A stretch of 61,759 nucleotides of DNA from Roseiflexaceae bacterium. GTDB lineage: Bacteria > Chloroflexota > Chloroflexia > Chloroflexales > Roseiflexaceae. Both the position numbers and the translations under genes were made by a program. Every line of letters starts with the position of its first letter. Within the stretch, counting starts at the first letter, position 1. The DNA lies in contig JACMIM010000574.1 of the NCBI GenBank assembly GCA_014381165.1, positions 1 through 61,759 of the forward strand. The letters are read 5' to 3'. Under the pieces are notes generated by a model. The model saw nothing but the letters and a program-made list of their open reading frames with translations. It ran no database searches and was not told the DNA's origin. This document shows, one piece after another, positions 18,657 to 42,596 of this stretch.

Positions 18657-18744
18657 GCGCTACACGCTCTCGCGTATTTGTATTTTCTGTTCCATTTCTA
18701 CCGGGAGCCCTTATACAAACCACCGTGTTGACGCCGCGTTTGAT

Positions 18745-26147: not shown

Positions 26148-26185
26148 TCGTGTCTCCTGCGCTGCTATTCGCGCTTGTTATTGAG

Positions 26186-26718: not shown

Positions 26719-26728
26719 TTTTACGTTC

Positions 26729-27472
26729 CTAAATTGTCACATTAACAAAATTATACGGTGGAACATTGCCCACATACTTGAAGATCATGCGCTGCCCCAT
26801 CTCGGCGTCGAGCTGCTGGATAATGGCGTCGAAGGCCGACTCCGCCGCGCGCTCGATCAAGAAGGCCACGTTCAACACCATGCGCTCGGTGATAGCTGCA
26901 TTCTGCCGCGTTTCTTTGGCCAGCGGGCGCAAATGCTCCAAAATATACTCGGCGTCAGCTGCACGGCGGCGCTGCATCTCGGCCTCGACAAGCTGGCCAA
27001 GCTGAATGCGCGCGTAGTAGGTTTCGGCGGCGGGGCGGCTGGACACCTTGGTGTGCAACTCACGAATCGGCGCGCTGGAGGCGACGATCTCCTGCATCAC
27101 CTGATCCTCGCGCCACAGCACCTTCAGCCCTAGCTCGATCCGATCTTCGAACTGGTGGAGTAGGGTGTCCAGCTCTTTGTAGCGCGGCGTAAGCACGTTG
27201 CGCTTGATCTTTTCAGGGCTGGAGGCAATCGTGCCAAAGCGCACCGGCAGGATGGGCGCGGCCCGCATTACTTCATCCAGTACCGCAGCGTGGCAGAGCA
27301 TATGGCGGCGGGTGTGTTCATACTCCTGCTCTGGTGAATCGCTGACCACCGCCGCCAGGTCATCATAATGCACGGTGTACACAGCGTCGCCGCGCCCGCC
27401 AATGCCAGCGGTGGTAAAGATGCGTGGCTCTGCGCTGCGCATAATGCAGTACACATACGTTCCCGCTGTCAT
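26729..27472 (-). CDS. gvpF: Gas vesicle protein GvpF
   Basis: YVYCIM..., LPVRFGTI, LGLKVLW and VGNVPPYNF are present. Confidence 0.8.
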   Translation of the reverse strand: MTAGTYVYCIMRSAEPRIFTTAGIGGRGDAVYTVHYDDLAAVVSDSPEQEYEHTRRHMLCHAAVLDEVMRAAPILPVRFGTIASSPEKIKRNVLTPRYKELDTLLHQFEDRIELGLKVLWREDQVMQEIVASSAPIRELHTKVSSRPAAETYYARIQLGQLVEAEMQRRRAADAEYILEHLRPLAKETRQNAAITERMVLNVAFLIERAAESAFDAIIQQLDAEMGQRMIFKYVGNVPPYNFVNVTI

Positions 27473-27978
27473 GATGCCACCTTGCGCAGCCGAATTTCCA
27501 GGATGCCATTGTGGTATTGTTGCACAAACACCTGCTCGACCTCGCCAGGCAGCGCGAGTTCGCGGCTGAAGCGCCGCGCGCCGATTGTTTCAAGCGCCAG
27601 CACAGCACCACGTAGCGTCACGCGAATGTCGGCTTCGTCCACGCCAGGCAGCTCGACTACAACGACCAACTCGCCATCCTCGTCGAATAGATCCAGGAGC
27701 GGCTCACGCGCCTCGGCGACCTCTGGCCCAGTGGCGGTTGCGCGCAGGTTGCCAAAATGCTCGACCTGCGGGACGCCGCCAATGCCACTGCGGATCGAAA
27801 CTCCATACACACCTTGCGCGCGTTCGCCCAAGCCCTTGATCGTGAATGAGCCGTTCTGATTGATCCCATCCTGCTCGGAAAGCGCGCTGATTCGCTCGAC
27901 CAACTCACCCAGTCCTTTGAGCAACCCACCGAAGCCTTGTTCGGCGGTGCTGGGCGGTATATTTCGGCGCGGTGCCAT
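27469..27978 (-). CDS. Hsp20/alpha-crystallin family protein (GvpH-like position)
   Basis: The alpha-crystallin core is VVVVELPGVDEADIRVTLRGAVLALE...LPGEVEQVFVQQYHNGILEIRL. Confidence 0.75.
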   Translation of the reverse strand: MAPRRNIPPSTAEQGFGGLLKGLGELVERISALSEQDGINQNGSFTIKGLGERAQGVYGVSIRSGIGGVPQVEHFGNLRATATGPEVAEAREPLLDLFDEDGELVVVVELPGVDEADIRVTLRGAVLALETIGARRFSRELALPGEVEQVFVQQYHNGILEIRLRKVAS

Positions 27979-27988
27979 AGCGTACTCC

Positions 27989-28300
27989 TTAATATTCTAG
28001 CGCGAATGTTCCCCAACCAGCTGCGTCCAAGCGCTCTGGCGGGGCTGGTTGCGCGGGTGGGGCGGCGTGTAAACCAAGCACTGGCTGCAACTGTGCCAGC
28101 CGCGCATCGACCAGCGCCAGGCGCTGCTCGGTACGCTGTTGATTCGCCTGCCAAATCTCCAACTCACGCTGAAGCCTGGTCTTTTCTTGTTCCAGCCGCG
28201 CGAGATCGCTGATCGCCTGTTGGCGGCTTTGCGGCAACCCCCGGCGCTGCGCACGCTGCCCAGTCGCGATATCGCGCAATCCACGTCGTTTGATCATCAC
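27989..28300 (-). CDS. Small coiled-coil protein (possibly GvpV-like)
   Basis: ISDLARLEQEKTRLQRELEIWQANQQRTEQRLALVDARLAQLQ is heptad-like. The gene sits between gvpN and hsp20. The family call is from memory only. Confidence 0.45.
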   Translation of the reverse strand: MMIKRRGLRDIATGQRAQRRGLPQSRQQAISDLARLEQEKTRLQRELEIWQANQQRTEQRLALVDARLAQLQPVLGLHAAPPAQPAPPERLDAAGWGTFALEY

Positions 28301-28344
28301 ACGGCCTTTCCTTCAGAGCTACAGAAACAGCGAACAGGTTGCCG

Positions 28345-29283
28345 CTACCGTCCAGAATGGCTGGTGATAATTGAAAGCAGCAGCTCGCGCTGTTGGGCGC
28401 GGCGCTCACGGTTGGCACTGCTGGCGGCGGTCTTCGACTCCAGCACATCCAAGCAAACCTGCACAAAGCGCGTGTCGTGGCGGGCCGGCGTGTAGCCCTG
28501 CTGTGCGGAAACGCGGGCGATCATGATGCTGGCGCGCAGCGTCGGGGTCTGGTCGTAGCACTGCGCGTCGCGGAAATCGCGCACAATGTCGGCGACATTG
28601 GCAGCCTGCTCGACAGCCATTCCGGACTGAGTGGCGACAATCTCGATCTCGGTTGCACGGTCGTAGTAATCGAGGTCGATTGTCACCAGCCGGTCGCTCA
28701 ACGCATCCTGTGCGGCATGAACACCGGCGTACTCTTGTGGGTTACTGGTGAAGATCACGCGAAACTCGGGGTGAACCTTTATGTATGATTCCTGCTGACC
28801 GCCACGGGGCAGCACCAGCACGCCTTCTTCGAGTACCGTCAGCAGCACATTGTTCGCTTCGGGCCGCGAGCGCGTGAATTCGTCATAGACCAGCGTAAAG
28901 CCTTGGCGGCAGGCTACGGTCAGGCGGTTATCTACCCAGCGTTGCACCGCATCTTCTTCGTATTTGAGTACCGAATGGATGAAGCGATCCTCCACGCGGC
29001 GGTAGCGGTAGCCATTCTGACCACCAACTAAATCGGAAGTCGACAGTTCTTCGTCGCCAACCATGAGCATCACTGGGCGCTCTAGTCGCGCGGCGACATG
29101 CATGGCGAGGGTCGTTTTGCCGGTGCCAGCCGGGCCACGAAAATGCATTGGGTAGCCAGCTTGAAGATAGGCCATTGCCCGCTCGGCCAGCGCCTGCACG
29201 GCGGAGGTTTCAACAAACGTAGCACTCGGGCGAATGGCTAACACGGTGCGTGGCTCAGCGCTGCGTGGAAGTGCGGTCGTCAT
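28345..29283 (-). CDS. gvpN: Gas vesicle protein GvpN (AAA+ MoxR/CbbQ-like ATPase)
   Basis: The Walker A is FRGPAGTGKTTLAMHVA and the Walker B region is LVYDEFTRS. The ATG overlaps the upstream stop (ATGA). Confidence 0.85.
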   Translation of the reverse strand: MTTALPRSAEPRTVLAIRPSATFVETSAVQALAERAMAYLQAGYPMHFRGPAGTGKTTLAMHVAARLERPVMLMVGDEELSTSDLVGGQNGYRYRRVEDRFIHSVLKYEEDAVQRWVDNRLTVACRQGFTLVYDEFTRSRPEANNVLLTVLEEGVLVLPRGGQQESYIKVHPEFRVIFTSNPQEYAGVHAAQDALSDRLVTIDLDYYDRATEIEIVATQSGMAVEQAANVADIVRDFRDAQCYDQTPTLRASIMIARVSAQQGYTPARHDTRFVQVCLDVLESKTAASSANRERRAQQRELLLSIITSHSGR

Positions 29284-30416
29284 CGGGCTTCCTTGCTGCC
29301 ATCGCCCCGCGCCTGGCGGCGGCGTGCGGGCGCGGGCGTCTGTGGTGCAGGAACGTGCGGCGCAACAGGCTCAACCAAGCTTCGCCCGACACTGGCTATA
29401 GCGCTCAGTAATTGTGCTACGTCGGCGTAGAGCGCCGCGATATACGTACCATCGGGGTGGTGCGGAGCGGGTCGTGTGTCCACCACTGCTGATAGCTCGG
29501 TCGCCAGTGCGCCGACGTTGTGCTGTAAATCTTCCACACAGCTGAACATAGTTTGGCGTTGCTCGTCATCCAGCGTCGATTGCACAGCGGAAAGCATGTT
29601 GAGAAAGGGTTCGACGTTGCGGCGAATCCCCGCCACGTAAGCACTGAGATGCTCGCGCTGCTCAACGCCGAGCGCTGTGCCCTCGGTATCAAGTGCCTTG
29701 AGAATGGCAACCCGCGCGAGTTTGGCATAGGCGTAGATACCGGCCTGGTTGAAGCTTTGCGTTTCGATGATCTCAGCCGGTTGAGCAGGCGGCGCACTGG
29801 TGTCGGGCAGCACAGGCACAATCAACGGCAGATCGTGCAGCACTGCACCTGCGTCGGCAGGTGTGGCGAATGCTGGACGATACAGTGCTGGCAACCCGGC
29901 GCGCGTTTCGGCCAGCCACGCGCTTGTTTGTTGCGCCAGGCTTGACCGCACCGCATCCAGCTGCTGGCGCTGTGCTATGGCACGGGCATCCAGGGCCACG
30001 CCGAGATCGGCGAGCTGTGCGGCGGTTGCTTGGCGCAGTGCATCCACGGCGCTGCTGCGCTGCTGGTGCTGGTCATTGGCTTGGGCGCTGCGCTGAGTGG
30101 CAAATAGTTGCAGCAGGCGGGCAGTTGCGCACCGCTGTTGTTCGGCGGCAGCGTACCGAGCAGCACGCTGTTCGGTGGCGTCGAGCTGCCGCGCATCACG
30201 TAATACAATCATCTGCTCAGCGACATGCCGCGCAAGGTCGGCGCGTGCTACCGCGCGCACCGCACTGGCCACCTGAGCTTGCATTGTTCGGCGCGTAGCG
30301 ACCTCGGCCAGCATGTGTGCTGTCGCCGCGTAGGACGTATCGAGCGCTACAGTTCGCGCGCTGCGTTGGTTCACGATCTGCGCTTGCAGTGCCCGCCAGT
30401 CATCGGTGTAAGCCAT
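29280..30416 (-). CDS. Ala/Gln/Arg-rich hypothetical protein occupying the gvpC position
   Basis: It lies between gvpA and gvpN and is translationally coupled to gvpN. The N-terminal ~190 aa are helical and low in complexity (AQ/AR-rich). ATG 30416 is preceded by AGGGA. Confidence 0.55.
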   Translation of the reverse strand: MAYTDDWRALQAQIVNQRSARTVALDTSYAATAHMLAEVATRRTMQAQVASAVRAVARADLARHVAEQMIVLRDARQLDATEQRAARYAAAEQQRCATARLLQLFATQRSAQANDQHQQRSSAVDALRQATAAQLADLGVALDARAIAQRQQLDAVRSSLAQQTSAWLAETRAGLPALYRPAFATPADAGAVLHDLPLIVPVLPDTSAPPAQPAEIIETQSFNQAGIYAYAKLARVAILKALDTEGTALGVEQREHLSAYVAGIRRNVEPFLNMLSAVQSTLDDEQRQTMFSCVEDLQHNVGALATELSAVVDTRPAPHHPDGTYIAALYADVAQLLSAIASVGRSLVEPVAPHVPAPQTPAPARRRQARGDGSKEAR

Positions 30417-30510
30417 ATTATTTCCCTGTGTACAAAAGGAGCGAAATTTCTTTTGCTCCATCTATTCACGCATACTTGAACGGTTTGTTCACGTTCACTC
30501 GACAGGTGAT

Positions 30511-30556
30511 GAGAGGGACGGTTCAGCAAGCGAAACACTTGCTGAACGCCCCTCTC
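30511..30556 (-). terminator. Strong hairpin immediately downstream of gvpA (candidate partial terminator/attenuator)
   Basis: The sequence is GAGAGGG-ACG-GTTCAGCAAG-CGAAACA-CTTGCTGAAC-GC-CCCTCTC. It lies 29 nt after the gvpA stop. No clear U-tract follows. Confidence 0.4.
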
Positions 30557-30584
30557 AATCGCGCACGCTTGGATTCAGTCGAAT

Positions 30585-30800
30585 CTAGGCAGGCGAAACG
30601 GAAGCCGTGGTGAGGCCGATCGCCTCAGCGTACTTTAGGTAGGTATCCACGCCTGCGATGACAACCCGTGCCTCAATCGCCAGCAACTCGATTCCAACCA
30701 GCGAAACGCGTACCCAGGCATCAATAACCAATCCTTTGTCGAGGATGCGGTCCACAACCTCGGCGAGGCTGCTCGATGCGTTCACTTTCTCAACGGCCAT
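30585..30800 (-). CDS. gvpA: Major gas vesicle structural protein GvpA
   Basis: [55 protein letters not shown] is near-canonical GvpA. An AAGGAG SD sequence lies 8 nt upstream. Confidence 0.9.
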
Positions 30801-31000: not shown

Positions 31001-31723
31001 TTAGTCCGTGCGCAGTGTCACAAGCATATATCCATGCCGCGGAACGGTGCGGATGTACACCGGCGCATCGGGAGCAGGTGCGAGCTTGGCGCGCAAATTG
31101 CGGATGTGCCAGCGCACCAAGCTCGGGTCGGTGACCTCTGGCGCATAGCCCCAAACGTGGGTGAGCAAGTGAGCGCTGGAAAAAACCTTGTCGGGGTTTG
31201 CCATCATGAAGCGCAACAGATCGAACTCAGCTGGTGTTAACGCGATCGACTTCTGGTCGATCTGCACCGTGCGAGTGTCGAGATCGAGCGCCAATGCGCC
31301 AACCACAAGGGCTGCGTGGGGTGGATTCAGCTTGGCGGGCGGCGCGGGCACCACCCGTTCACGGCGCAGCAACGCCCGCACTCGTGCTTTCAATTCGCGC
31401 AGGTCGAACGGCTTGGCGAGATAATCGTCGCCGCCTTCCTCCAACCCAGAGATTCGATCTTCGACCGCACTTTGCATGGAAAGAAACAGTACAGGCACTG
31501 CTGCCAAACCCGGATCGCGCCGGATCTGCCGGCAGAAGGCCATTCCGTCCATCTCCGGCATGGCGACATCAAGAATCACAAGGTCGGGACGATGGGCGCG
31601 CGCCAACCTGAGACCCACTGCACCATTGGCAGCGGTGCTAACCTCATACCCTTCGTCTTGGAGGCTGTAGCGAACAGCCCAGATTAAATCGGGTTCATCG
31701 TCGACGACAAGAATATGTGGCAT
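31001..31723 (-). CDS. OmpR-family response regulator
   Basis: The receiver has ILVVDDEPD and LVILDVAMPEMDG. The winged-helix output has LTPAEFDLLRFMMANPDKVFS...VRWHIRNLRAKL...IRTVPRHGY. Confidence 0.85.
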   Translation of the reverse strand: MPHILVVDDEPDLIWAVRYSLQDEGYEVSTAANGAVGLRLARAHRPDLVILDVAMPEMDGMAFCRQIRRDPGLAAVPVLFLSMQSAVEDRISGLEEGGDDYLAKPFDLRELKARVRALLRRERVVPAPPAKLNPPHAALVVGALALDLDTRTVQIDQKSIALTPAEFDLLRFMMANPDKVFSSAHLLTHVWGYAPEVTDPSLVRWHIRNLRAKLAPAPDAPVYIRTVPRHGYMLVTLRTD

Positions 31724-31735
31724 GTGGGCAATCCC

Positions 31736-32149
31736 CTAGATCAGGTGTACCATGCTATGGTTGGTGTTACGGGCGGCAGTCTGGCCTGCAATCGCTCGCA
31801 TTTCGCGCAGATTAAATGGCTTGGGTAGGAAGATGGTCAGTCGGCCTTCTTGAAGACCAGCAGCGGCCAGTTCGTCCTCACCGTGGCGGCTACCGGAGAT
31901 CAGCACAATCGCTGTTTCAGGGCGGCGCTGGCGTATCTGCGCGGCCACGTCAATGCCGCGCGCATCAGGCAACAGTGAATCGACGAATACCAGCGCGTGG
32001 TGAGTTTCATGCCACAAACGTAATGCTTCCAGGCCCAAACCTGTTGTGGTTACGGCATAGCCCAATGGCCGCAGCACGCTTTCGAAAAGCCAGCAGATAG
32101 CTGGTTCGTCGTCCACTACGAGAATACTCAGGGGTTGTTCAGGCATCAC
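31736..32149 (-). CDS. Single-domain (CheY-like) response regulator
   Basis: ILVVDDEPA, ALVFVDSLLPDARG (phospho-Asp present) and FLPKPF are present. Confidence 0.8.
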   Translation of the reverse strand: MMPEQPLSILVVDDEPAICWLFESVLRPLGYAVTTTGLGLEALRLWHETHHALVFVDSLLPDARGIDVAAQIRQRRPETAIVLISGSRHGEDELAAAGLQEGRLTIFLPKPFNLREMRAIAGQTAARNTNHSMVHLI

Positions 32150-33638
32150 GGTCTCTTAGTGTTGCAGGCAGTAGCAGCGTAAAGCTACTACCCTGCCCAA
32201 CCTGACTTTCAACCGTCAATACGCCATGATGCTGCTGCACAATGCTGTAGCACAGCGAAAGCCCTAGCCCTATCCCCTTGCCAATCGGGCGCGTGGTAAA
32301 GAACGGGTCGAAGACGCGCGCCAGATGCTCGGGCGCGATACCACACCCGCTGTCGATGACGCGCACCCGCACCTGCCCCACCCCACTATGATCCAATGCC
32401 AGTGTCAACGCGCCACCGTCGGGCATCGCCTCGCAGGCATTCAGCACAAGATTAACGAACACCTGCTGCAACAATGCGGTATTGCCCAACACCAGCGGCA
32501 GATCAGGCGCGGCACTGATGGTCAGATTGATCTGCTGCGCGAGAAGACGGTGACGCAGCAATAACAGCGCCGCGTCGAGCACCTGGCCGAGTTCGACTGC
32601 CGCCATCTGCTCGTACTGCGGGCTGGCAAACGTGAGTAAGTTCTCGATGATTTGCGCGGCGCGGCGGGTCGCAGTGTAGATCCGCTCGGCACATTCGCTT
32701 CGTAGCACTGGGTCGTCACTTGCCTCATCGAGCAACTGGACGCACGCCGAAATAATGCCTAGTGGGTTGCGTAGCTCGTGAGCGACCCCGCCCGCCATCA
32801 CGCCCAACGAAGCCATTTTTGCCGATTGGATGAGCTGCGCCTCCATCCGGCGGCGCTCGGTTAGATCGCGCCCCAGTGCAACGATCCCGACCACGCGCCC
32901 AGCTTCGTCGTGCATTGGCGAGCAGCTCCAGGCGATCGGTACACACCGCCCATCGGCAGTTAGGAGACTGGCTTCGGCGTGGCGCACTGCATCCTGGCTG
33001 CGTGGATCGGCAGCACAGCCCGCCAGCAGGTGCGCCAACGCCAAGCGACTAGCGTCGTCGCACATGGCGGTCAATGTGCGGCCATGCGCCTGCACTGCAC
33101 TGATGCCACACACACATTCCGCCGCGTGGTTCCAGGTGACAATCTGCCCACCGGGGTCAAGCGAGATCACCAGATCATTCGCACACTCGACTACTCGCGC
33201 CAGGCGCTGCTCGACCTGGCGTGCTTCGGCCTGAAACTGCTCTTGCGCCGTGATATCATCCATGAAAAGCAGCACGTATGGTGCGCCATCGTCGCCCTGA
33301 AGAGGAATGAGCCGATAGTAATAGATACGCTGAGGCAAGCCGGGAGCGCGGTAGGTCAGCTTGCCACCTTCGTGCGGCTGCCCGTCGTGAAGCAGGGCGC
33401 GCACTTTACCGGCCAGCTGCGTGTAGGTAATCAGCACTTTTGGAAACACCTGATCGAGTGTTCGCCCCAGTGTTGTCTCAGCAGTTCGGCGCGATTTCTG
33501 ATAGAAATTGCGGTTAGCGGCGACAACACGCTCCTGCTGGTTGATAACAAGCAGCGAGCTAGGGATCTGCTCCAAGATGCGTGCGGCAAACATTTCTGTG
33601 TGCGCTCGCTGACTAAGCGCAAAAGATGATCTGCTCAC
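32139..33638 (-). CDS. PAS-domain sensor histidine kinase
   Basis: Two PAS-like segments are present. The H box is GGVAHELRNPLG, the N box is NLVLNACEAM, and the G boxes are DSGCGI and GIGLGLS. GTG 33638 is preceded by GGGAG. The track start 33839 would overlap the upstream gene. Confidence 0.8.
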   Translation of the reverse strand: MSRSSFALSQRAHTEMFAARILEQIPSSLLVINQQERVVAANRNFYQKSRRTAETTLGRTLDQVFPKVLITYTQLAGKVRALLHDGQPHEGGKLTYRAPGLPQRIYYYRLIPLQGDDGAPYVLLFMDDITAQEQFQAEARQVEQRLARVVECANDLVISLDPGGQIVTWNHAAECVCGISAVQAHGRTLTAMCDDASRLALAHLLAGCAADPRSQDAVRHAEASLLTADGRCVPIAWSCSPMHDEAGRVVGIVALGRDLTERRRMEAQLIQSAKMASLGVMAGGVAHELRNPLGIISACVQLLDEASDDPVLRSECAERIYTATRRAAQIIENLLTFASPQYEQMAAVELGQVLDAALLLLRHRLLAQQINLTISAAPDLPLVLGNTALLQQVFVNLVLNACEAMPDGGALTLALDHSGVGQVRVRVIDSGCGIAPEHLARVFDPFFTTRPIGKGIGLGLSLCYSIVQQHHGVLTVESQVGQGSSFTLLLPATLRDRDA

Positions 33639-33670
33639 AGCTAACTCCCGCCATGCCAAAAGGCACCTAT

Positions 33671-34237
33671 CTATGCGTTGTCCTGCGCCGCTTGCTGACG
33701 CGGGCTGGTCCACGGCACATCTGGTAGACCGGCGCGGGCATTGGCGGCGCGTGCCAGCACAAAGCAAAGGTCGGATAACCGGTTGAGATACACCAGCACC
33801 TGCGAATTGACCGTTTCCTCGCGCGCGAGTGCAACACACCAGCGCTCGGCGCGGCGGCAGACGGTGCGGGCGAGGTGTAAATGCGCGGCGCTCAGGCTGC
33901 CGCCCGGCAAAATGAACTGGCGCAGTGGCTCTAGCTCGTGCTCCAGCATATCGATCGCCGTTTCCAGCGTCGATATCTCGGCCTCACCGACACGCGGAAT
34001 GTTGGCCGCCTCGCCAGGTGTCGCGAGATCGGCACCGACCACAAACAGCTGATCCTGAATCTGTGCCACCAGCGCATCAAGCCCAGCCTCCAGGCCACTG
34101 GCACGGGCTACACCAAGCACTGCGTTGGCTTCATCCACCGCACCATATGCTTGCACGCGCAAGGCATCTTTTCCGACGCGCTGCCCACCCCACAAACCAG
34201 TCTCCCCCAGATCGCCAGTTTTTGTGTAGATTTTCAT
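33671..34237 (-). CDS. PduO-type ATP:cob(I)alamin adenosyltransferase
   Basis: MKIYTKTGDLGETGLWGGQRVGKDALRVQAYGAVDEANA and FILPGGS...AHLHLARTVCRRAER are family signatures. Confidence 0.8.
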   Translation of the reverse strand: MKIYTKTGDLGETGLWGGQRVGKDALRVQAYGAVDEANAVLGVARASGLEAGLDALVAQIQDQLFVVGADLATPGEAANIPRVGEAEISTLETAIDMLEHELEPLRQFILPGGSLSAAHLHLARTVCRRAERWCVALAREETVNSQVLVYLNRLSDLCFVLARAANARAGLPDVPWTSPRQQAAQDNA

Positions 34238-34281: not shown

Positions 34282-34476
34282 GCATCCCTGCCGGAGTCGT
34301 AAAAAGGGGAGGTGGTTTTTTCGGGGCTGCGCCCCAAACCCCCGCTTTGCGCGCACGCGCATGGTTACACCTCAACTATAGCATCCCTGCCGGAGTCGTA
34401 AAAAGGGGAGGTGGTTTTTTCGGGGCTGCGCCCCAAACCCCGCTTTGCGCGCACGCGCATGGTTACACCTCAACTA
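34282..34476. repeat. Two tandem ~97-bp copies (99-bp period) of a GC-rich structured element
   Basis: Copy 1 is 34282-34378 and copy 2 is 34381-34476. They are identical except for one C in a C-run. Each contains the GGGGC-TGC-GCCCC and GCGCG-CA-CGCGC stems. Confidence 0.85.
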
Positions 34477-35158
34477 GGAATGCTATAGACAGGAGATCAT
34501 CGGCAGGTGCGCCGTCGATAAGTTGCCGCATGGCCAATTCAAGCACCTGCCCTTCCGCTAGGCAGCCGAGCGCCAGCAACTCGTGGCCCCAATCGGCCAA
34601 CAGCAGTGTTTGTGCGCCGTTGACAAGCTGTGTCACAGGGGCAAATTCGCCAAGCGATCGGCGTATGGTGTCCAATCCCACTGCAACCATTGCCGCGCGG
34701 GCCAGCAGCGCATCGGGCAGGCCCGCCGCCGCCAGCAGCCGCCCGTCGCGCCCGACCAGCGCAAGGCCTGATAGCGCGGGGCAGTCTAGCAGCAGCGCGG
34801 CCACATATTGCGCCGTAGGTCGTGCGGGCAGTGCCAAACCAATGTCCTCGCGATCGTCGCGTCGCCGCGCCGCCTCGAGGATCAGCCCTTCCCACTCGGC
34901 AGCCATTGTCAGGTCGTCGGGCAGCCGGTCAAGCTGCTCGAGCTGAAATTGCCCGCTTTCCCAGCCGACCAGTGAGTAGACTGCTTCCTCGCCGTTCTGC
35001 TGATCACAGTGCGCGCCGACAATCAGCCCCTCAAGGATGTCAATATGCGCCGCGCTCGCACCGCGCCACGCGCTGAGGCGGGCGGAACGACGCTCCTGGC
35101 AGATGGCTTGAAGGAGACTGGCCGCGCTGATCAGTGCAAAGTTACCAGTAAAAAGCAT
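34463..35158 (-). CDS. DUF4388-like N-terminal domain plus roadblock/LC7-like C-terminal domain protein
   Basis: GNFALISAASLLQAICQERRSARL...GEEAVYSLVGWESGQFQLEQ is DUF4388-like. The C-terminal LSGLALVGRDGRLLAAAG is roadblock-like. A GGAGGA SD sequence is present. Confidence 0.55.
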   Translation of the reverse strand: MLFTGNFALISAASLLQAICQERRSARLSAWRGASAAHIDILEGLIVGAHCDQQNGEEAVYSLVGWESGQFQLEQLDRLPDDLTMAAEWEGLILEAARRRDDREDIGLALPARPTAQYVAALLLDCPALSGLALVGRDGRLLAAAGLPDALLARAAMVAVGLDTIRRSLGEFAPVTQLVNGAQTLLLADWGHELLALGCLAEGQVLELAMRQLIDGAPADDLLSIAFLVEV

Positions 35159-35176: not shown

Positions 35177-35755
35177 CTAGGCGTGCTGGCGAACCCGTGC
35201 AACCACGGTGTTCATGGCCGCTTTAAGCGTATCGAATACTCCCACGCCCCGTGTCGCCGAAGCTTCGAAACATTGACGGTTGGCAAAAGGACGGCGCAGG
35301 AGTTCGGTCGGAACGACATGCGGCAGGTCGCGCTTGTTGAACTGCACAATGATTGGAAATGTTCGCACATCGTGGCCCAACTCGACAAGGTGCTGCTCCA
35401 TGGTAAACCACGATTCCTGGTTTTCCGCCATGCGCCCGGCTTGAGAATCAGCCACAAAAACGATGCCATCCGTCCCTTGTAGAATAAGGCGTCGGCTGGC
35501 TGCGTAATACACTTGGCCAGGCACGGTGTAAAGCTTAAATTTAGGCTTCAAATTATTAATCTTGCCCATTTCAAGTTGCAAAAAATCAAATAAAAGTGTA
35601 CGCTCCTGCTGCGTTTTAAGCGAAATCAGCCGTCCGCGCATATGCGCGGGCGTTTTTGCGTGGATGTATTGCAGGTTGGTTGTCTTGCCGCTGAGTGCCG
35701 GTCCATAGTACACAATCTTCAGGTTCAGCTCACCTAATGCCCAATTGACAAACAT
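35177..35755 (-). CDS. mglA: MglA-like Ras-superfamily small GTPase
   Basis: NLKIVYYGPALSGKTTNLQYIH (P-loop), LYTVPGQVYY, GIVFVADSQ and QFNKRDLP are nearly collinear with MglA. Confidence 0.85.
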   Translation of the reverse strand: MFVNWALGELNLKIVYYGPALSGKTTNLQYIHAKTPAHMRGRLISLKTQQERTLLFDFLQLEMGKINNLKPKFKLYTVPGQVYYAASRRLILQGTDGIVFVADSQAGRMAENQESWFTMEQHLVELGHDVRTFPIIVQFNKRDLPHVVPTELLRRPFANRQCFEASATRGVGVFDTLKAAMNTVVARVRQHA

Positions 35756-35764
35756 AGCATACCT

Positions 35765-36244
35765 CTACCAGATAGTATTGAGCTGTGCAGAGAACTGGGT
35801 TTCAAAATCCTCGCTGACCGCTGGTGGCGGTGGGATCATCACGATATCGATCAGAACCTTGGCAATACGGACTGTGGTTTCTTTGATCGCCATGCGCGAC
35901 CAGCCTATCGGCACCTCGCGCGCGGTGACAATCAACAGCAGGAGGCCCTCGCCCACGCGCGACATCAGGACGGTGTGTTCGTCATGCTCCTGGATGATCA
36001 GGTTACATGTGCGTTTGCCGCCGATCAGGCGCGCGATTTCAAGTGTTGCCAGCAGCTCGCCAGCGGCCAGCGCGGCAATGCTCGAAACATCGAAGTTGCC
36101 CTGTGCGCTCCACGATGCGATCTCCTGTCCGCTCAAATCGGCGAGCAGCCCATACCGCACATCTACTTCACGGCCAATCCATTTCAAGCAGGTTTGCAGC
36201 TCGTTAAGCTGATCGACCGAAAGCGTGAGTTGCGAGTGGCGCAT
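35765..36244 (-). CDS. Roadblock/LC7 (MglB-like) protein
   Basis: It is of Roadblock size with the matching pattern (VRYGLLADLSGQEIASW...IIQEHDEHTVLMSRVGEGLLLLIV). ATG 36244 is preceded by AGAGGA. It lies directly upstream of the GTPase gene. Confidence 0.65.
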   Translation of the reverse strand: MRHSQLTLSVDQLNELQTCLKWIGREVDVRYGLLADLSGQEIASWSAQGNFDVSSIAALAAGELLATLEIARLIGGKRTCNLIIQEHDEHTVLMSRVGEGLLLLIVTAREVPIGWSRMAIKETTVRIAKVLIDIVMIPPPPAVSEDFETQFSAQLNTIW

Positions 36245-36331
36245 AGGGCGATCCTCTTTTTGGTGGACAAAGTGACCAACGACAAACGGCGGCAAGCAAA
36301 GCACGAAAACGTAGCTCGCTCGTGTGTCGTA

Positions 36332-37354
36332 CTACACGACCAGTGCAGTTTGTAACTCGCGCCCAAAAACGCGGTCGAACTCGGTACTCAGCGACAAACT
36401 GAACAGCGAGTCGAGCGACCGATTATCCTCGGTAGCGGTTGTCGAGCGTAAGCTATTTAGGCGCTCTGCTCCCCGCTTCATGATCAACATCGCCACACCA
36501 ATTTTGGGCGACATAAGGTGTTTATCGAATACGAGCGTGAGCAGCCAATCGCTGCCGACGTTGATCGAATACACATTGTAGTGCCGGCCCTCGTGGGCGC
36601 TAAAGTGCTGAGTTTCTGAATCCTGGAGCGTGCGCCCAAGCTCTACGGCGTTGATGAAACCACCCGCGACCAGCGACGTAAGCGCGGGAATATCCATGTT
36701 GCGTGTTTCACCCTGCTGGTCAATGATATGCCCAGTGGTATTGGTGTAGAGCGCCAGCTTTGCGTGGGCCTCGTGGCGGATCTCGTCCACCACTGCGGCA
36801 ACCTGGCGCGCATCGCGTTCAGCGCTGGCCGTGCTTCGTGGTTCTGGCGCAGCATTGTGTGCCGCGGGCGTAGAAATTATTTGGGCCATCAACTGCTCCA
36901 GCAGTACACGCAGGTCTGGTGCCGGAGTCGCCGCCGGTACGACCGTGCCCCTCAACTCCTTTGCAGAAATGAGTTCGATCAGGCTGGCATCGGAGTGACG
37001 CAGCAAAAGCAGTTGCGTATCTGGACAAGCAGTGCGCAACTTTCGGAGCACACTGAGTACGCTATTGCGGCGGCGCAGTGTTGCAACGACGAGCTGAAAG
37101 CAGGTAGGAAATCCCTGCACCGCTTCGGCGATAAATGCCTGCGCCGACTGGACGTGATAGGTGATACCCGGCAGCGGGCGTGCCGTCAACTCGTCGAGCA
37201 AGAAACGATAGGCATTGGGCGAATCTTCGATCAATAGGATGCGATATTCCACAGGGGAACTAGCCTTTCCGTGCTTGTGTGGTGTGACGACGATAGGAGA
37301 ATAAAGCCGCTCGACCTGTGTGCCACTCACTTCTGTGGTGTGGCTGGTAAACAT
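36332..37354 (-). CDS. Receiver-like domain lacking the phospho-acceptor Asp, fused to a roadblock/LC7-like domain
   Basis: RILLIEDSPNAY...FQLVVATLRRRNSVLSVLRKLR aligns to a REC fold, with Ala (codon 37082-37084) where the Asp is expected. The C-terminus is LYTNTTGHIIDQQG...YNVYSINVGSDWLLTLVF. Confidence 0.6.
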   Translation of the reverse strand: MFTSHTTEVSGTQVERLYSPIVVTPHKHGKASSPVEYRILLIEDSPNAYRFLLDELTARPLPGITYHVQSAQAFIAEAVQGFPTCFQLVVATLRRRNSVLSVLRKLRTACPDTQLLLLRHSDASLIELISAKELRGTVVPAATPAPDLRVLLEQLMAQIISTPAAHNAAPEPRSTASAERDARQVAAVVDEIRHEAHAKLALYTNTTGHIIDQQGETRNMDIPALTSLVAGGFINAVELGRTLQDSETQHFSAHEGRHYNVYSINVGSDWLLTLVFDKHLMSPKIGVAMLIMKRGAERLNSLRSTTATEDNRSLDSLFSLSLSTEFDRVFGRELQTALVV

Positions 37355-39390
37355 GGGACACTGAACGCAAACGTGCTGCCGCGCCCAGGCGTGCTTTCAG
37401 CCCATATTCGCCCTTTGTGTTGTTCGATGACTGTTTTTGCAATGGTTAGCCCCAGACCGCGCCCCGGAATCGTAGATTGCGCGGTGCTGGGCGCACGATA
37501 AAATGGGTCAAAGACGAGCGCTAGTTCATCCGGCGGCAGTCCCAGGCCATTATCCGTCACCACTACCTGCACCTGATCCAGCGCCATACCAACAGTAACC
37601 GTGATCAGCGCGCCAGTCGGGCTATATTTGATCGCATTGTCGATAATTGCTCCAATAGCCCGCCCGATGCTTTCTTCATCGGCGTAGACGCGCGGCAGGC
37701 TCGCGGCAATGTTGGTTGTCACCTGTTGACCGCGCCGGCCAAACTCGGCGTACTGGGTGCCGACAGCTGCCTCGACCAACAGATCGAGCCGCAGTGGAAT
37801 CCTGTGTTCCGCTGACTGGAGCCGAATCTGTCCTAGCGCCAGGAGATCATTGACCAGCATTGATAGCTCGCTATTGAGCTTGACGACTTCGCCGATCAGT
37901 TGCGCCTGCTGCTCGTTGAGCTGCCCAGCGGCAGGTACTTGCATGATTAGGTTGCGCAGCGACTGGAGCGGCGAGCGTACAATGTTGGAGAAACTCAACA
38001 AGAAATGTTCATTTCGCTCACCAGTATTGGCTGGCTCGGCAGGCGCGGCTGGCACGTTGGACGTGGGCGCTGCGGGCGCGTTTGCTATAGGCTCGATCAC
38101 GAATGCCCAAAGTTCTGGGCCTAGCTCGCTCACAGTGGCGGTGGCAGCGCGCCCATCAGGCAGTTCGATCACATGCGACCCGCCGAGTTCACCCATCAGT
38201 GCCTCGGTCAGAACTGGGGCGAGCACCCACGCGCCGCCCGCAACGAGCGACCGCCCAATGAATTGACCGGAAAGGTGCAACATCTGCACCGCAGCGTCGG
38301 TCGCCGCAGCGATATGGCCGTGGGCATCGCTCAACAACACTGCCTCGTGCAAACGCTGTAACAGCGCCAACTGCGCGGTTGCCCCAGCCTGGCGGGGCGC
38401 GGGTATGGCGGCGCGCCGTGGCTGCGAAGGCGCAACCGGCAGCGGCGTTGGACGCAGCGCAGCAGAGAACGCGCCACTCAGCCCATTCAGGTTGGCGCGC
38501 ACTGCAACTGGCAGCAGGCGGTCGCTGGCCGTCAACAACACGCCCCACACCTCGCCCGCGCGCATGAGCGGCGCGGCATACAGCGCCCGCCCGCCTTGCC
38601 AATCTCCACGCTGCCCGTTCTGCTCGGCTCGTGCTGTCGGCGCGGCACTGACCGGGCCACGCTCACGCGCGACTTGGGCTAGGATCGTTGATTGCACAGG
38701 CAGGCTACCGGGATTTGTGTCACCCTCGTAGGCCAGCACAAGCAGCCGCTGCTGGTCAGCGTCGAACTGCCCAAGTAACACCTGCCCGCCTGGGTGCAAC
38801 AGCTGGCGCACGGCGGGCAGGCGTAGACACATGGCCAGATCTGTGTGGCTAACAAGTGCCTCCGCCAGCTTCAGCCAGCTTTGCTCCTGCGGCATAAGTG
38901 CTGCCAAATCGGCAGCCTGGAGCGCTGGATCGGCGCACAGTGCCACGGCAACACGGCCGATAAACGCACGCTGGTGTTCCTGGTCACACAGTGAGTTCAG
39001 GCTATAGGGCATATCACCCATTTGCGAGAGCGTAAGTGCAATCTGGTCGGCGTACTCGGGATCGGTGAGTAACCGCACCCGGTAGCCATTGGGTTCGGCG
39101 CTTGCCAGCAGTGTGAGCGCCCCATGTGGCCCAGCAATAACCAAAAAGGGATCATCGCCAAATACGCGGGCAACTGAGATCAGCGGCGATACGCCATTGC
39201 CTGTGCCGTGAACGAGCTGGTCGAGCGCGCCGCCAAGCAAGCAGATGCTCTGCGGATCGGTCGGTCGCTCCTGAATCAGCAGTTTGCCAAGCCGGGTGAA
39301 CTGAGCAGTGCTGAGAAAGCAGCCTGTATCAGTGGGCGGCAAGCCGATTAGATGTGCCAAATGCCACGTTGTCGGTTGATATACCTGCAC
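37327..39390 (-). CDS. GAF/PAS-containing histidine-kinase-like protein with Asn at the phospho-His position
   Basis: GTG 39390 is preceded by AAAGGA, 12 nt after the upstream stop. The H-box region reads FLLSFSNIVRSPL (Asn codon 37984-37986). The N box IIDNAIKYS and the G boxes DNGLGL and GRGLGL are intact. Confidence 0.7.
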   Translation of the reverse strand: MQVYQPTTWHLAHLIGLPPTDTGCFLSTAQFTRLGKLLIQERPTDPQSICLLGGALDQLVHGTGNGVSPLISVARVFGDDPFLVIAGPHGALTLLASAEPNGYRVRLLTDPEYADQIALTLSQMGDMPYSLNSLCDQEHQRAFIGRVAVALCADPALQAADLAALMPQEQSWLKLAEALVSHTDLAMCLRLPAVRQLLHPGGQVLLGQFDADQQRLLVLAYEGDTNPGSLPVQSTILAQVARERGPVSAAPTARAEQNGQRGDWQGGRALYAAPLMRAGEVWGVLLTASDRLLPVAVRANLNGLSGAFSAALRPTPLPVAPSQPRRAAIPAPRQAGATAQLALLQRLHEAVLLSDAHGHIAAATDAAVQMLHLSGQFIGRSLVAGGAWVLAPVLTEALMGELGGSHVIELPDGRAATATVSELGPELWAFVIEPIANAPAAPTSNVPAAPAEPANTGERNEHFLLSFSNIVRSPLQSLRNLIMQVPAAGQLNEQQAQLIGEVVKLNSELSMLVNDLLALGQIRLQSAEHRIPLRLDLLVEAAVGTQYAEFGRRGQQVTTNIAASLPRVYADEESIGRAIGAIIDNAIKYSPTGALITVTVGMALDQVQVVVTDNGLGLPPDELALVFDPFYRAPSTAQSTIPGRGLGLTIAKTVIEQHKGRIWAESTPGRGSTFAFSVPCLPATPQK

Positions 39391-39401: not shown

Positions 39402-40478
39402 CTACAGCGCGGCCTGGGCCACGCGCAGCAGTGTGATGGCCTCGTGCGCGATATATTCGGGCAACTCGTGGCTCATAGCTTGGGCAAGTGCGGCATAACT
39501 TTGGCGCAACGGGGTATCGGGCAGCCCCTGCGTTGCGAACCAATGCTGCATCCAATGGGTGTATGATACGAGGCCCGCCGGGCTGTGCTGCGCAAGCCCA
39601 TCGGCCAGGTAGGCCACATACCAGCCTACCTCCAGGGCGGCCTGCTCTGGCTGTGCGGCCAGCCCCTGCGCAACAAGCTGCTGTGCGACCACGAAAACCA
39701 GGGTGTCTTGTGCGGCAAGCAGCGCGCGGCCTGATTCGTTCTCCGGCAGCAGCGCGCTTTGCGCCCCGTTCAACAGCCGCCGGATTTGTGCGGCGGCTGT
39801 TGGTGGCAGTCGCTGTTCGGCGGATTGCGTCAGCAGCCAAAACCATTGTTGCATATGCGTCGTCGTCAGGTGACGCTGCCACAGCCGTTCGCGCATCCAG
39901 TGGGCGTGTTGGGTAAACACGGAATCATGGCGCGTGCCAACTGCGTCAAGCGCGTAATCGAGCAAAAACCACACATCATACAGCGCCCGCTGGCGGCCCT
40001 CCTCGCCATAAGCTGCCTGCCAGTGCCAGTGGGCGTCATAGCTTCCAGCAATGGCATCCTCGGCCAGCAACTCGTGCGCAGCGGCGATCTGCGGGGTGTG
40101 TGGGTCGCTGTAGGCAAGTGCGTTCAGCCCTCCCATCAGGTAATCGTAGATCACCGGCAGCCCGTCTGCTGGCATCTGCGCGCTGATAGCCCCCCAAAGA
40201 TGGGCATAGCTTTGGCGCATGACACCGGTTGTACAGGCGTGTTTGACCAGCATCTCGCGCCGCCAGCGCATATGGTCTTCGTTGATCATCGGCGAGCGGT
40301 AGCGTACCGATTTAACTAACGCCGCCAAATTGAGTTCCATATCCAGCAGGTAACGCTCGCGCCCGCTGTTTGGGAAGCGCTCGATCAGCAGCCAATCCTG
40401 TGTCATCAGGTCGACCGTCTGAGCAAGGATAGCTGGGCGAGCGGTGTCAAGCTGTTTGGCAATTGCAAGATGATCCAT
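39402..40478 (-). CDS. Hypothetical all-helical protein built from three ~105-aa repeats
   Basis: Three collinear repeats share H-x-(R/H)-W, (R/Q)Q(S/W)(Y/F), a (M/L)P and an AL end. One such set is DHMRWRRE...MRQSYAHLW...QMP...LNAL; another is QHAHWMRE...MQQWFWLL...RLP...QSAL; a third is YTHWMQH...LRQSYAAL...ELP...QAAL. Confidence 0.55.
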   Translation of the reverse strand: MDHLAIAKQLDTARPAILAQTVDLMTQDWLLIERFPNSGRERYLLDMELNLAALVKSVRYRSPMINEDHMRWRREMLVKHACTTGVMRQSYAHLWGAISAQMPADGLPVIYDYLMGGLNALAYSDPHTPQIAAAHELLAEDAIAGSYDAHWHWQAAYGEEGRQRALYDVWFLLDYALDAVGTRHDSVFTQHAHWMRERLWQRHLTTTHMQQWFWLLTQSAEQRLPPTAAAQIRRLLNGAQSALLPENESGRALLAAQDTLVFVVAQQLVAQGLAAQPEQAALEVGWYVAYLADGLAQHSPAGLVSYTHWMQHWFATQGLPDTPLRQSYAALAQAMSHELPEYIAHEAITLLRVAQAAL

Positions 40479-40487
40479 ACTGGCCCT

Positions 40488-42596
40488 TTATTTTCGGAAG
40501 GTGTCGGCGAGCTGACGCACAATCTGGCGGATGTCACCTTCGAGAAACTGCCCGGCGATGCGCGACCGCAGGTCAGGACGCTCATAGAATGCCATGCCGC
40601 CAAAGATGAACATCGGGCGGGGCGGCTCGACCCGCGCAATAATCTGCCCAACCTCGGTCAAGCTATGGGCTGCCTCGATAGTTGTCGCGGAAAGACCAAG
40701 CACTTGGGGGCGAATCTGGCGGATAGCTTCTTCGATGGTCGTGTTTGGTACGTTTTGCCCAAGGTAGATCACGCGAAAGCCGCTCCAGCGCATAAACAGC
40801 GAAAGCATGATTGCACCAAGCTCGTGAAGTTCGTTTTGCGCACAGCCGATCACTGCCAGCGGGCCACCGGGGCTATCCACATACGCATTGAGCAGGGTAA
40901 GCAGCTTGCCCTCGACAAAGCGGCTGGTAAAGTGTTCCGCCGCTACAGAAACCTCGCCACGGTGCCAGCCCTCGCCAACCGCAATCTGCACCGGCATCAG
41001 CAACTCGGTGCAAATCTCTTCGGTGGCATATACACCGCACGCTTCTTGCCAAACATACTCGGCGCTGCGCTGGTCGAATGCAATCAATGCGCCCATCATG
41101 CGCTTCTGGAGCATCGGCCAGCTTCGGTCGTTGAATGGATCCGGCGCAGCCAGCACTAGCCCCGGTGGGATCTGCTTTGCCGGGGCCACTGTAGATGATG
41201 GTGGAGCCGCCACTTGCCCGCCGCGCATCCAGGCTGGCAAGCCAAACCCGCCCGGCGCAGCGGCAGTAGGTGCCGTTGCCGCAGGCGCTTCCACTTGCGT
41301 GTTGGCCGCGCTGCCATTGAGTGCTTGGAATGGTGCCGCTGGAAACGAGGGCGGGCTGAAGGTTGGCGCAGTTTTTGCAGGTGAAGCTGCGCCGTTCGCC
41401 GGTACGGTAGGCACGACAGCACGTGATGGCGGCGCGGCCACTGCTGGCGCTGTGGCAGCCGCAAACGAAGGCATCGCCGCCGGCGATGTTTGCTGGATCG
41501 CCCGCCCGCTCATGATCTGCCCCAGCAGCGCCGCCACAGCCACCACGATCTGCGCAGTTGGCGCGTCGTGCGGTTCCGGCTCGTGTAGTCCGGCCAGCAG
41601 CACACCCCACACGCGGCCTTGGACATAGATTGGCACCGCGATGGCCGAAAGCGCGTCGGGTAGTAGCTCCTGATCCAAGCTGCCAGCTAGCAAGGTGCCC
41701 AGCGCTGGCACTCCTTGTTGCGCGGCCTGCCCAGCCAAGCCCTGCGTCGCACTGATCGCCGCCATTGGGCGCGTGCTACTCCACACCGCTGGGTTGAGTA
41801 CGTTTCCATCGGAGCGGTAGCAGAGTTCGCCCAACGTGCCAGCGCTGCGAAGCACCTGAATGGCTTCAGCAAGCGTCTGCTCGTCCGATTGTTCAGCAGT
41901 GGTCAGGATTTCGAGCAGGTAGGGAAGATCGTACAAACTGGGCAGCAGATTAAGCCGTTTGCATTCCGGATGCGTTGCCAAGCCATATGCAATCTGTGCC
42001 CAGCGGGCTTTGTTTGCAAAATGATCACGCTGGACGACAGGAGCCATGGGCTGCTGTTGCATCAGGCTGAGCAGCAACCCGGCCCGCTTGACAATCCGCT
42101 CGTCGGCGGAAAGCGCGCCCTCGAAACGGTAGCGCCGCATTGTGCCACCGGTGCGCTCCGCCACTGCCTGCGTGAGCAGCGCAGCCCAAAAGCCCGGGCT
42201 ATCTACGATCAGAAACCATTCTTGACACAGTGGTGTGTTGGGCTGAAGGGCAACAAAGGTAACTCCCGGCATGGTTGGCGGCTCGATATCGGCCTCACCA
42301 TAAACCGTCACACTGCGGCACACGCGGCTCAACTGCGCGATGCGCCCCTGGTGAAGCCGAAAAAGTGAGAACCGCAGCACGCCGAATGAAAGATCTGCGG
42401 GCAAGTGCTCATCTTGCACCAAAAGCTCAAGCTGACGCCCAATAATAACCAGCGCATCAGCGGGGTGGTGTAGTCGCCGCTCCACTGGCACATCGCCCAC
42501 CAGCCTAGCAAGCGATGGACCGGTGGCACGCGACGGAGTCGAGGAACTTGATGCGATCATAAGATTTACCCCATACACTAACTGAGTATACGACAC
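40488..42596 (-). CDS. DICT-like / GAF / Ala-Pro-rich linker / CarH-type B12-binding (light-sensor) multidomain protein
   Basis: The C-terminus carries GWHRGEVSVAAEHF, the W-x9-EH motif (40932-40967). It also carries NELHELG, the E-x-H-x-x-G lower-ligand His (codon 40824-40826), in a Rossmann-like B12-binding fold. The N-terminal 180 aa are DICT-like (from memory) and the middle is GAF-like (IAVPIYVQGRVWGVLLAG). The start is uncertain (GTG 42596 or ATG 42560). Confidence 0.75.
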   Translation of the reverse strand: MSYTQLVYGVNLMIASSSSTPSRATGPSLARLVGDVPVERRLHHPADALVIIGRQLELLVQDEHLPADLSFGVLRFSLFRLHQGRIAQLSRVCRSVTVYGEADIEPPTMPGVTFVALQPNTPLCQEWFLIVDSPGFWAALLTQAVAERTGGTMRRYRFEGALSADERIVKRAGLLLSLMQQQPMAPVVQRDHFANKARWAQIAYGLATHPECKRLNLLPSLYDLPYLLEILTTAEQSDEQTLAEAIQVLRSAGTLGELCYRSDGNVLNPAVWSSTRPMAAISATQGLAGQAAQQGVPALGTLLAGSLDQELLPDALSAIAVPIYVQGRVWGVLLAGLHEPEPHDAPTAQIVVAVAALLGQIMSGRAIQQTSPAAMPSFAAATAPAVAAPPSRAVVPTVPANGAASPAKTAPTFSPPSFPAAPFQALNGSAANTQVEAPAATAPTAAAPGGFGLPAWMRGGQVAAPPSSTVAPAKQIPPGLVLAAPDPFNDRSWPMLQKRMMGALIAFDQRSAEYVWQEACGVYATEEICTELLMPVQIAVGEGWHRGEVSVAAEHFTSRFVEGKLLTLLNAYVDSPGGPLAVIGCAQNELHELGAIMLSLFMRWSGFRVIYLGQNVPNTTIEEAIRQIRPQVLGLSATTIEAAHSLTEVGQIIARVEPPRPMFIFGGMAFYERPDLRSRIAGQFLEGDIRQIVRQLADTFRK

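Follow-up and report, generated by a model that had tools for sequence, protein, structure and literature searches.

The window analysed here, a stretch of 61,759 nucleotides from a Roseiflexaceae bacterium (contig JACMIM010000574.1, assembly GCA_014381165.1), carries on its minus strand a gene whose product joins DICT and GAF domains to a cobalamin-binding domain (CBD) resembling that of CarH, followed by genes for a histidine-kinase-like protein and an MglA/MglB-type small-GTPase module. The open reading frame of this gene (B12 gene in the following) occupies 40488-42596, spans 702 amino acids (aa) and is open up to a GTG at 42596. Because the database copy of the protein has 690 aa and the alignment with orthologues begins at Met13, the ATG at 42560 is most likely the true start; residue numbers refer to the 702-aa frame throughout. 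The gene and its parts are as follows.

40488..42560, minus strand: DICT-GAF-linker-CBD gene, 690 aa from ATG 42560
42057..42509, minus strand: DICT domain, aa 30-180 (Pfam, alpha/beta model, invariant columns)
41487..42029, minus strand: GAF domain, aa 190-370 (weak Pfam match, fold model, relatives)
41133..41486, minus strand: Ala/Pro-rich linker, aa 371-488 (predicted disordered; length varies among orthologues)
41223..41246, minus strand: motif FGLPAWMR within the linker, aa 451-458 (near-invariant columns)
40884..41129, minus strand: four-helix cap (B12-binding_2), aa 490-571 (Pfam, Foldseek to Thermus thermophilus CarH, TtCarH)
40932..40967, minus strand: W544-x9-E554-H555 with G541xxW and H545, the equivalent of TtCarH H132
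40491..40865, minus strand: Rossmann-type B12-binding domain, aa 578-702 (Pfam)

A CarH-type cobalamin-binding domain

What is the nature of the C-terminal module? Pfam recognises the cap (B12-binding_2, aa 498-565, E 5e-11) and the Rossmann-type domain (B12-binding, aa 581-676, E 4e-13), and the top sequence matches in the PDB are the CBD of TtCarH (5C8A, E 2e-19) and CtMerR (8JBS). W544, E554, H555 and H591 align to W131, E141, H142 and H177 of TtCarH. The segment NELHELG at 40815-40835, with the codon of the lower-axial His591 at 40824-40826, contains the E-x-H-x-x-G motif of this histidine (E589-L-H591-E-L-G594), which is invariant in 22 aligned family members that are 47-61% identical to the window protein; the same holds for W544, H545, E554, H555, H591, G613 and P617. 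An AlphaFold2 model built on these 22 orthologues has three confident domains (DICT 30-180, GAF 190-370, CBD 490-702). Foldseek places the CBD on TtCarH with a target TM-score of 0.83 and a root-mean-square deviation (rmsd) of 3.0 Å, and among the matches listed for the full-length model only CarH-type structures appear. Given the strong E-values and the invariance of the motif residues, a chance match can be set aside.

The first-pass annotation, made from the letters alone, had placed both CarH signatures in this region, and its coordinates (40932-40967 for W-x9-EH, 40824-40826 for the His codon) are exact; Pfam and the alignment to TtCarH bear out the assignment. In profile hidden Markov model searches, B12-binding, B12-binding_2 and DICT were matched, GAF was matched weakly, and the W-x9-EH register holds in the cap; the superposition on TtCarH points the same way. 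According to Yu et al. (PMC11796333), the AdoCbl (adenosylcobalamin)-binding residues of CarH serve as a signature of light-responsive CBDs, formulated in SignatureFinder as GxxW, EH, GxxH and GxxxP. Three of these four motifs are present here, namely G541xxW544, E554H555 and G613xxxP617 (the last at 40746-40760). The same paper describes H132 of TtCarH, to which H545 corresponds, as forming the bis-His light state and as not conserved in CtMerR, SasPcob and AbDPcob (PMC11796333).

The NCBIfam model of CarH matches at E 1e-28 and 100 bits, against a cut-off of 400, over profile positions 83-264, that is, over the CBD only. No MerR-type helix-turn-helix (HTH) was found in the B12 protein by Pfam or NCBIfam and no globin domain by Pfam or in the model. 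Lacking a DNA-binding domain, the B12 protein is thus not a member of the CarH family; judged by sequence, what it carries is the CarH-type photochemical module.

The DICT-GAF half and its tether

The N-terminal DICT domain is matched by Pfam above its gathering cut-off (aa 50-143, E 1.6e-6, 28.5 bits versus 23.8), is modelled as a confident alpha/beta fold and contains stretches conserved across orthologues, RFSLFRLHQGRI, EWFLxxDSPxFWG and RRYxFEG. For the following domain the Pfam match (GAF_2/GAF, aa 241-362, E 3e-4) stays under the cut-off, while the model of aa 190-370 shows a GAF-like topology at a pLDDT above 90 and relatives score for GAF at E 1e-12. An N-terminus made of DICT and GAF, as first proposed from the letters, is thereby upheld. 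So is the Ala/Pro-rich linker of about 130 aa: of the 130 residues from 366 to 495, 35 are Ala and 25 are Pro, and aa 371-488 are predicted to be disordered (pLDDT below 50). Amid this variable tether, F451, G452, L453, P454, W456 and M457 form near-invariant columns in the 22-orthologue alignment, so that FGLPAWMR looks like a candidate docking motif for a partner. The earlier view that the protein has no recognisable output domain holds as well.

Full-length homologues number about 35 and all belong to Chloroflexales (Oscillochloris, 'Ca. Viridilinea', and metagenome-assembled genomes of Chloroflexaceae and Chloroflexales); the hosts are phototrophs. An exhaustive HMMER search with the DICT-GAF part against 1.8 billion representatives returned 250 relatives at E <=0.001, and, outside the immediate family, the ones inspected are for the most part kinases of the DICT-GAF-(PAS)-HisKA-HATPase type or proteins of the DICT-HATPase type. 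In addition, the N-terminus of the B12 protein is homologous to that of the kinase encoded beside it (hhalign probability 97%, E 3.5e-11). The B12 protein thus resembles the sensory portion of a kinase of this kind, in which the transmitter would have been swapped for a tether and a CBD.

Gene neighbourhood and synteny

The genes that share the neighbourhood of the B12 gene are listed below in window order.

39402..40478, minus strand: 358-aa all-helical protein, phycobiliprotein/photoglobin-like globin fold, internally duplicated
37327..39390, minus strand: His-less histidine-kinase-like protein, 687 aa (DICT-like/GAF N-terminus, DHp, ATP boxes)
36332..37354, minus strand: long MglB paralogue, 340 aa (Roadblock/MglB domain at 179-331, N-terminal extension of ~180 aa)
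35765..36304, minus strand: MglB-like Roadblock/LC7 protein, 179 aa (Pfam Robl_LC7; probable start M21 at 36244)
35177..35755, minus strand: MglA-type Ras-like GTPase (PDB MglA)
34463..35158, minus strand: PATAN (DUF4388/PatA_N) protein (Pfam E 2e-15)
33671..34237, minus strand: PduO-type ATP:cob(I)alamin adenosyltransferase, AdoCbl-forming (Pfam E 1.9e-60)
31001..33839, minus strand: PAS histidine kinase (His present), receiver and OmpR regulator; kinase start probably near 33665
31736-32149, minus strand: single-domain receiver of this system
31001-31723, minus strand: OmpR-type regulator of this system
20860..30800, minus strand: gas-vesicle cluster (gvpF/L genes, gvpG, gvpJ-like, CDC48-like AAA)
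30585-30800, minus strand: gvpA
28345-29283, minus strand: gvpN
19847..20470, minus strand: heme oxygenase, biliverdin-forming (Pfam E 7e-17)

All of these lie on the same strand. The genes from B12 to PATAN stand head-to-tail, separated by 9-18 nt or overlapping slightly; a gap of 225 nt precedes PduO, and beyond it come the PAS histidine kinase, receiver and OmpR-type regulator, about 200 nt before gvpA, then the gas-vesicle cluster and, last, the heme oxygenase. A scan for promoters and terminators did no better than on shuffled sequence, and neither a riboswitch or other Rfam family nor a tRNA was found in the window. The first-pass annotation had named the adjacent kinase and the GTPase module as natural partners; the kinase is indeed His-less (Asn in the H-box), with the MglB and MglA genes beyond it. 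The 358-aa protein, the heme oxygenase, PduO, the PAS kinase/OmpR system and the gas-vesicle cluster were not part of that account.

How stable is this arrangement? We compared 30 non-redundant Chloroflexales loci, 24 of which have at least 9 kb of flank. Among these 24, the kinase is present in 22, MglB together with MglA in 20, PATAN in 19 and the 358-aa gene in 16, and the PAS kinase/OmpR system and gvpA in 10 each. Three gene orders occur: co-directional, as in the window; divergent, of which O. trichoides DG6 is an example; and a permuted order, in which gvpA stands immediately upstream and a further DICT-HATPase gene follows downstream. In all three the core of the cluster stays linked. 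The PAS kinase, receiver and OmpR genes adjoin the B12 cluster in 11 related loci, and gvpA lies no more than 10 kb away in 12, spread over all three gene orders.

In 'Ca. Viridilinea mediisalina' two B12-kinase-MglB-MglA clusters are found on different contigs (L012 and L022), only one of which includes the 358-aa gene. In a further locus, on a long metagenomic contig, the B12 gene is split into 481 aa and a 204-aa CBD (L036:10001-12060). Since the kinase gene is split there too (L036:13317-15448, 211 and 483 aa), this is probably an assembly frameshift, and we discarded the idea of a natural separation of DICT-GAF and CBD.

A His-less kinase and an MglA/MglB/PATAN module

The kinase starts at GTG 39390 behind an AAAGGA ribosome-binding site. 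In its H-box, FSNIVRSPL, Asn469 (37984-37986) takes the place of the phospho-acceptor His, which is missing in nearly all of about 22 orthologues (the one exception is in L019); HisKA scores weakly (E 0.1), whereas all four ATP-binding boxes (N, G1, F and G2) are preserved. A homologue search returned no orthologues outside this cluster type, beyond which the matches fall off abruptly to HisKA-bearing kinases of a generic sort (E 1e-31 or weaker), and a crude check for a long hydrophobic stretch saw none. Loci of the permuted order carry, in addition, a DICT-PAS-HATPase protein (L001:14373-15956; also in L005, L016, L015 and L019) whose DICT domain shares 37-38% of its residues with the one in the B12 protein (33% in L019), making it a third DICT member of the cluster.

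The GTPase matches Myxococcus MglA in the PDB at E 4e-62 and has intact motifs (P-loop GPALSGKT, switch-2 TVPGQ, and NKRD for NKxD). Two MglB paralogues accompany it: the long one matches MglB in the PDB at E 3e-11 and in NCBIfam, the short one in the PDB at E 3.5e-9. By eye the N-terminal 180 aa of the long paralogue look receiver-like; this resemblance found no support in Pfam or the PDB sequence search and was dropped.

A globin-like protein, heme oxygenases and PduO

The 358-aa protein belongs to an orphan family of the same clade, for which no Pfam family was found. Its AlphaFold2 model (pLDDT 93) is all-helical, and an internal repeat is detected by hhalign with a probability of 97%. The best Foldseek matches are phycobiliproteins, the bilin-binding domain of ApcE and smURFP among them, and a tandem haemoglobin and the photocobilins 8J2W/8J2X are hit as well, all at E of only 0.04-0.3; ApcE and smURFP superpose at an rmsd of 2.8 Å and a TM-score of about 0.65. 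In a profile search of the PDB, phycocyanin came first and ApcE second (E 0.085 and 0.5), and the segment EVGWYLAYLxD aligns with the region that reads RDIGWYIRL in phycobiliproteins; the chromophore Cys is lacking. We refer to the 358-aa protein as a di-globin and regard it as a candidate biliverdin binder.

The window's own heme oxygenase gene lies about 20 kb away, past the gas-vesicle genes. In 11 related loci and in L036, a 424-aa heme-oxygenase fusion stands inside or beside the operon (L002:16933-18204, with equivalents in L006, L008, L009, L010, L024-L028, L032 and L036), often between mglA and the PATAN gene. It consists of an N-terminal heme oxygenase domain and a conserved C-terminal domain of about 200 aa that has no Pfam or PDB match; comparison of this C-terminal half with the di-globin, as possible photoglobin kin, gave an hhalign probability of only 16%. 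PduO comes after PATAN in the window and in five related loci. In Myxococcales, B12-binding proteins are clustered with biliverdin-binding BBAG-2 globins (PMC10151467), and photocobilins are CBD-globin fusions that couple AdoCbl and biliverdin optically (PMC10979010). These precedents, together with the linked heme oxygenases, make a split two-chromophore sensor, composed of the CBD protein and the di-globin, plausible by analogy.

Other features of the window

The block from 18000 to 42600, which holds the gas-vesicle, two-component and B12/MglA genes, has a GC content of 0.57-0.64, compared with 0.50-0.56 in its flanks. A fragment of a Tn3-type DDE transposase (17613-18656) and a phage-type integrase (18583-19791) border one end of the block, which could be a genomic island. 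The gas-vesicle cluster includes a GvpF/L-DnaJ fusion (22660-23895) and a 726-aa CDC48-like double-AAA ATPase (23645-25825), whose reading frames, as called, share about 250 nt. The gene immediately upstream of the B12 gene (43239-44264) encodes a WD40 beta-propeller protein of 341 aa; it has a hydrophobic stretch at its N-terminus that, judged by eye, could be a signal peptide. Beyond it, 44825-46936 encodes a 703-aa Big_1 protein with long C-terminal (T/S)P(T/A)ATA repeats. A ParA/ParB partition gene pair is found at 53277-55069; as the window appears to comprise an entire contig of 61,759 bp, it lies either close to a chromosomal origin or on a replicon resembling a plasmid.

A model of signal flow and its alternatives

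How might these parts work together? We consider it somewhat probable that the B12 protein is a cytoplasmic CarH-type AdoCbl photoreceptor which, by protein contacts, signals to the His-less kinase and the MglA switch and thereby serves positioning in the light field. In the dark, the AdoCbl-loaded domains would self-associate in a CarH-like manner; green or blue light would cleave the Co-C bond, H545 would ligate the cobalt, and the assembly would change. The DICT-GAF half, perhaps with the FGLPAWMR motif of the tether, would then engage the His-less, ATP-binding kinase differently, the kinase would act on the two MglB paralogues (the GTPase-activating side) to set the GTP state of MglA, and the PATAN protein would be the effector adaptor for MglA. 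The di-globin and heme oxygenase may supply biliverdin as a second chromophore, yielding a split 'photocobilin', and the adjoining PduO would recharge the sensor with AdoCbl. The output would probably be position in the light gradient, through gliding polarity and/or gas-vesicle buoyancy, with the buoyancy branch running through the neighbouring PAS-kinase/OmpR pair. A more elaborate version, which we offer only tentatively, has a two-chromophore sensor complex (AdoCbl and biliverdin), formed by the DICT-GAF-CBD protein and the di-globin, gating MglA via the kinase and the MglBs, so that in filamentous anoxygenic phototrophs both gliding polarity and buoyancy would follow light colour and dose. 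That output goes by protein contacts to the kinase and GTPase, as the first-pass annotation suggested, is backed by the synteny of about 30 loci and by the kinase's paralogous DICT-GAF, from which we infer the route.

Several points weigh against a photoreceptor that drives the MglA switch. Cofactor binding, photolysis, the change in oligomeric state and all protein-protein steps are what we infer. AdoCbl photolysis resets slowly, which suits gene regulation more than fast motility control. The Gly of the GxxH motif is Asn588 in the window protein and Gly in 11 of the 22 orthologues; since the corresponding Gly of CtMerR touches the corrin by its main-chain carbonyl (PMC11796333), this substitution may be tolerated. 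The matches of the di-globin are individually non-significant (E 0.04-0.5), and its gene, present in 19 of the 30 loci, is missing from about a third. Gas-vesicle genes are absent within 10 kb in Oscillochloris ZM17-4 and around both Viridilinea copies. Finally, the loci all belong to a single bacterial order, which reduces the synteny to few independent events.

Could the sensor instead address transcription? Its target would then be the PAS kinase, receiver and OmpR regulator, hence gvp transcription, and MglA, MglB and PATAN would be merely co-inherited and act separately. The two-component genes and gvpA lie beside the B12 gene in 11-12 loci, the PAS kinase operon is divergent from it in many, and slow, dose-integrating B12 photochemistry, as established for CarH, fits transcriptional control. 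The linkage to kinase, MglB and MglA, however, is tighter (20-22 of 24 loci, versus 10 of 24 for the PAS kinase/OmpR system), which weakens this alternative; moreover, where gvpA abuts the cluster in the third gene order, the two are not separated by a two-component system, and it is the His-less kinase that has the paralogous DICT-GAF, the PAS kinase does not. We regard exclusive targeting of the OmpR pathway as unlikely, and the kinase/MglA and PAS kinase/OmpR routes are not mutually exclusive.

It is less likely still that the CBD reports cobalamin availability or redox state, not light, and acts as a B12-status sensor, in the manner of corrinoid-binding regulators that are not photoreceptors. 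B12-binding domains also act elsewhere as plain cofactor or ligand sensors, photochemistry is here predicted, and DICT and GAF could be the real signal input. Against this stand the W-x9-EH cap, the H132-equivalent His and the GxxxP loop, invariant features that Yu et al. associate with light-responsive CBDs (PMC11796333), as well as phototrophic hosts and linked genes for heme oxygenase, a bilin-globin-like protein and PduO. That the protein carries the corrinoid for a methyltransferase system, as the source annotations (the automatic JGI label 'methanogenic corrinoid protein MtbC1') and weak NCBIfam matches to MtgC, MtbC and MtaC (E 5e-12 to 2e-4) would have it, is highly improbable and was rejected, as these matches reach 21-46 bits against family cut-offs of 215-450 (all methyltransferase corrinoid-protein and MetH models, at E 5e-12 or weaker, fall far under theirs) compared with 100 bits for the CarH model, no methyltransferase genes occur in about 30 neighbourhoods, and the cap motif is of the photoreceptor type, not of a methyl-transfer context.

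Comparison with known systems

Known B12 photoreceptors act directly on transcription (CarH/LitR), via an antirepressor (AerR) or on a fused enzyme (photocobilins). With CarH/LitR, AdoCbl-dependent photoreceptor repressors of the MerR family (TtCarH, 5C8A/5C8D), the present protein shares the four-helix cap with W-x9-EH, the Rossmann domain with its E-x-H-x-x-G His and the second His beside the Trp (H132 in TtCarH, H545 here). It differs in that a MerR HTH is replaced by DICT-GAF on a disordered tether of about 120 aa, and in its genomic context, which is made of signalling-protein genes, not carotenoid genes. AerR/PpaA of purple bacteria likewise binds B12, has no DNA-binding domain and signals by binding a partner protein; it has another His arrangement, without the W-x9-EH logic, and its partner is the transcription factor CrtJ/PpsR. 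The photocobilins (SasPcob 8J2W, AbDPcob 8J2Y; PMC10979010) resemble our system in combining a light-responsive CBD—a predicted property here—with protein-protein action, and in them and the BBAG-2 clusters (PMC10151467) a bilin-globin-like protein and a heme oxygenase are likewise genetically associated. Whereas the globin is fused to the CBD in photocobilins, it is here a separate, duplicated gene product without significant similarity to known photoglobins.

The sequence-similarity network of Yu et al. (2024) already lists signature-bearing CBDs fused to DICT and to GAF, in silico (PMC11796333). The bare architecture is thus not a discovery, and the present family is probably one of these DICT/GAF clusters, for which the text available gives no experiment, gene context or function (PMC11796333).

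On the GTPase side, MglA/MglB of Myxococcus xanthus and Thermus thermophilus likewise combine intact MglA motifs, a Roadblock-fold MglB and a PATAN regulator. Here, in contrast, MglB is present as two paralogues, of which one is extended by 180 aa at its N-terminus, and the inputs of the Frz/RomR type are replaced by a His-less kinase and a predicted B12 photoreceptor. Streptomyces conservons encode in one operon a kinase-like CvnA, a Roadblock protein CvnB, the DUF742 protein CvnC and the GTPase CvnD; the present cluster likewise joins a sensor-kinase-like ATPase, Roadblock proteins and a small GTPase, here with a predicted photoreceptor attached. No DUF742 match was found by Pfam in any cluster protein, and the GTPase is of the MglA and not the CvnD type, so we rejected membership in the conservons.

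Literature searches returned no paper linking a B12 photoreceptor with MglA/MglB, a His-less kinase or gas vesicles, nothing relevant on CarH with GAF or in Chloroflexi, and no description of the system at the operon level. What appears to be new, as the gene content suggests, is a CarH-type sensor with a small-GTPase module, reached through a pseudo-kinase, as its presumed output, not DNA or a fused enzyme; those who study B12 photobiology and those who study bacterial polarity would alike find such a wiring unexpected. As a candidate, the system also extends the pairing of B12 protein, bilin-globin and heme oxygenase to a split form with a tandem globin. If true, it would constitute a green-light module whose presumed pure protein-protein output via a flexible tether makes it attractive for optogenetics, and the poorly understood DICT domain, like the His-less kinases that are linked to Roadblock and GTPase proteins, would acquire a physiological role. 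Filamentous phototrophs must hold their position in steep light gradients. For them, the here-described cluster would represent the first light input into an MglA/MglB system and a pointer to a regulator of gas-vesicle buoyancy in Chloroflexales.

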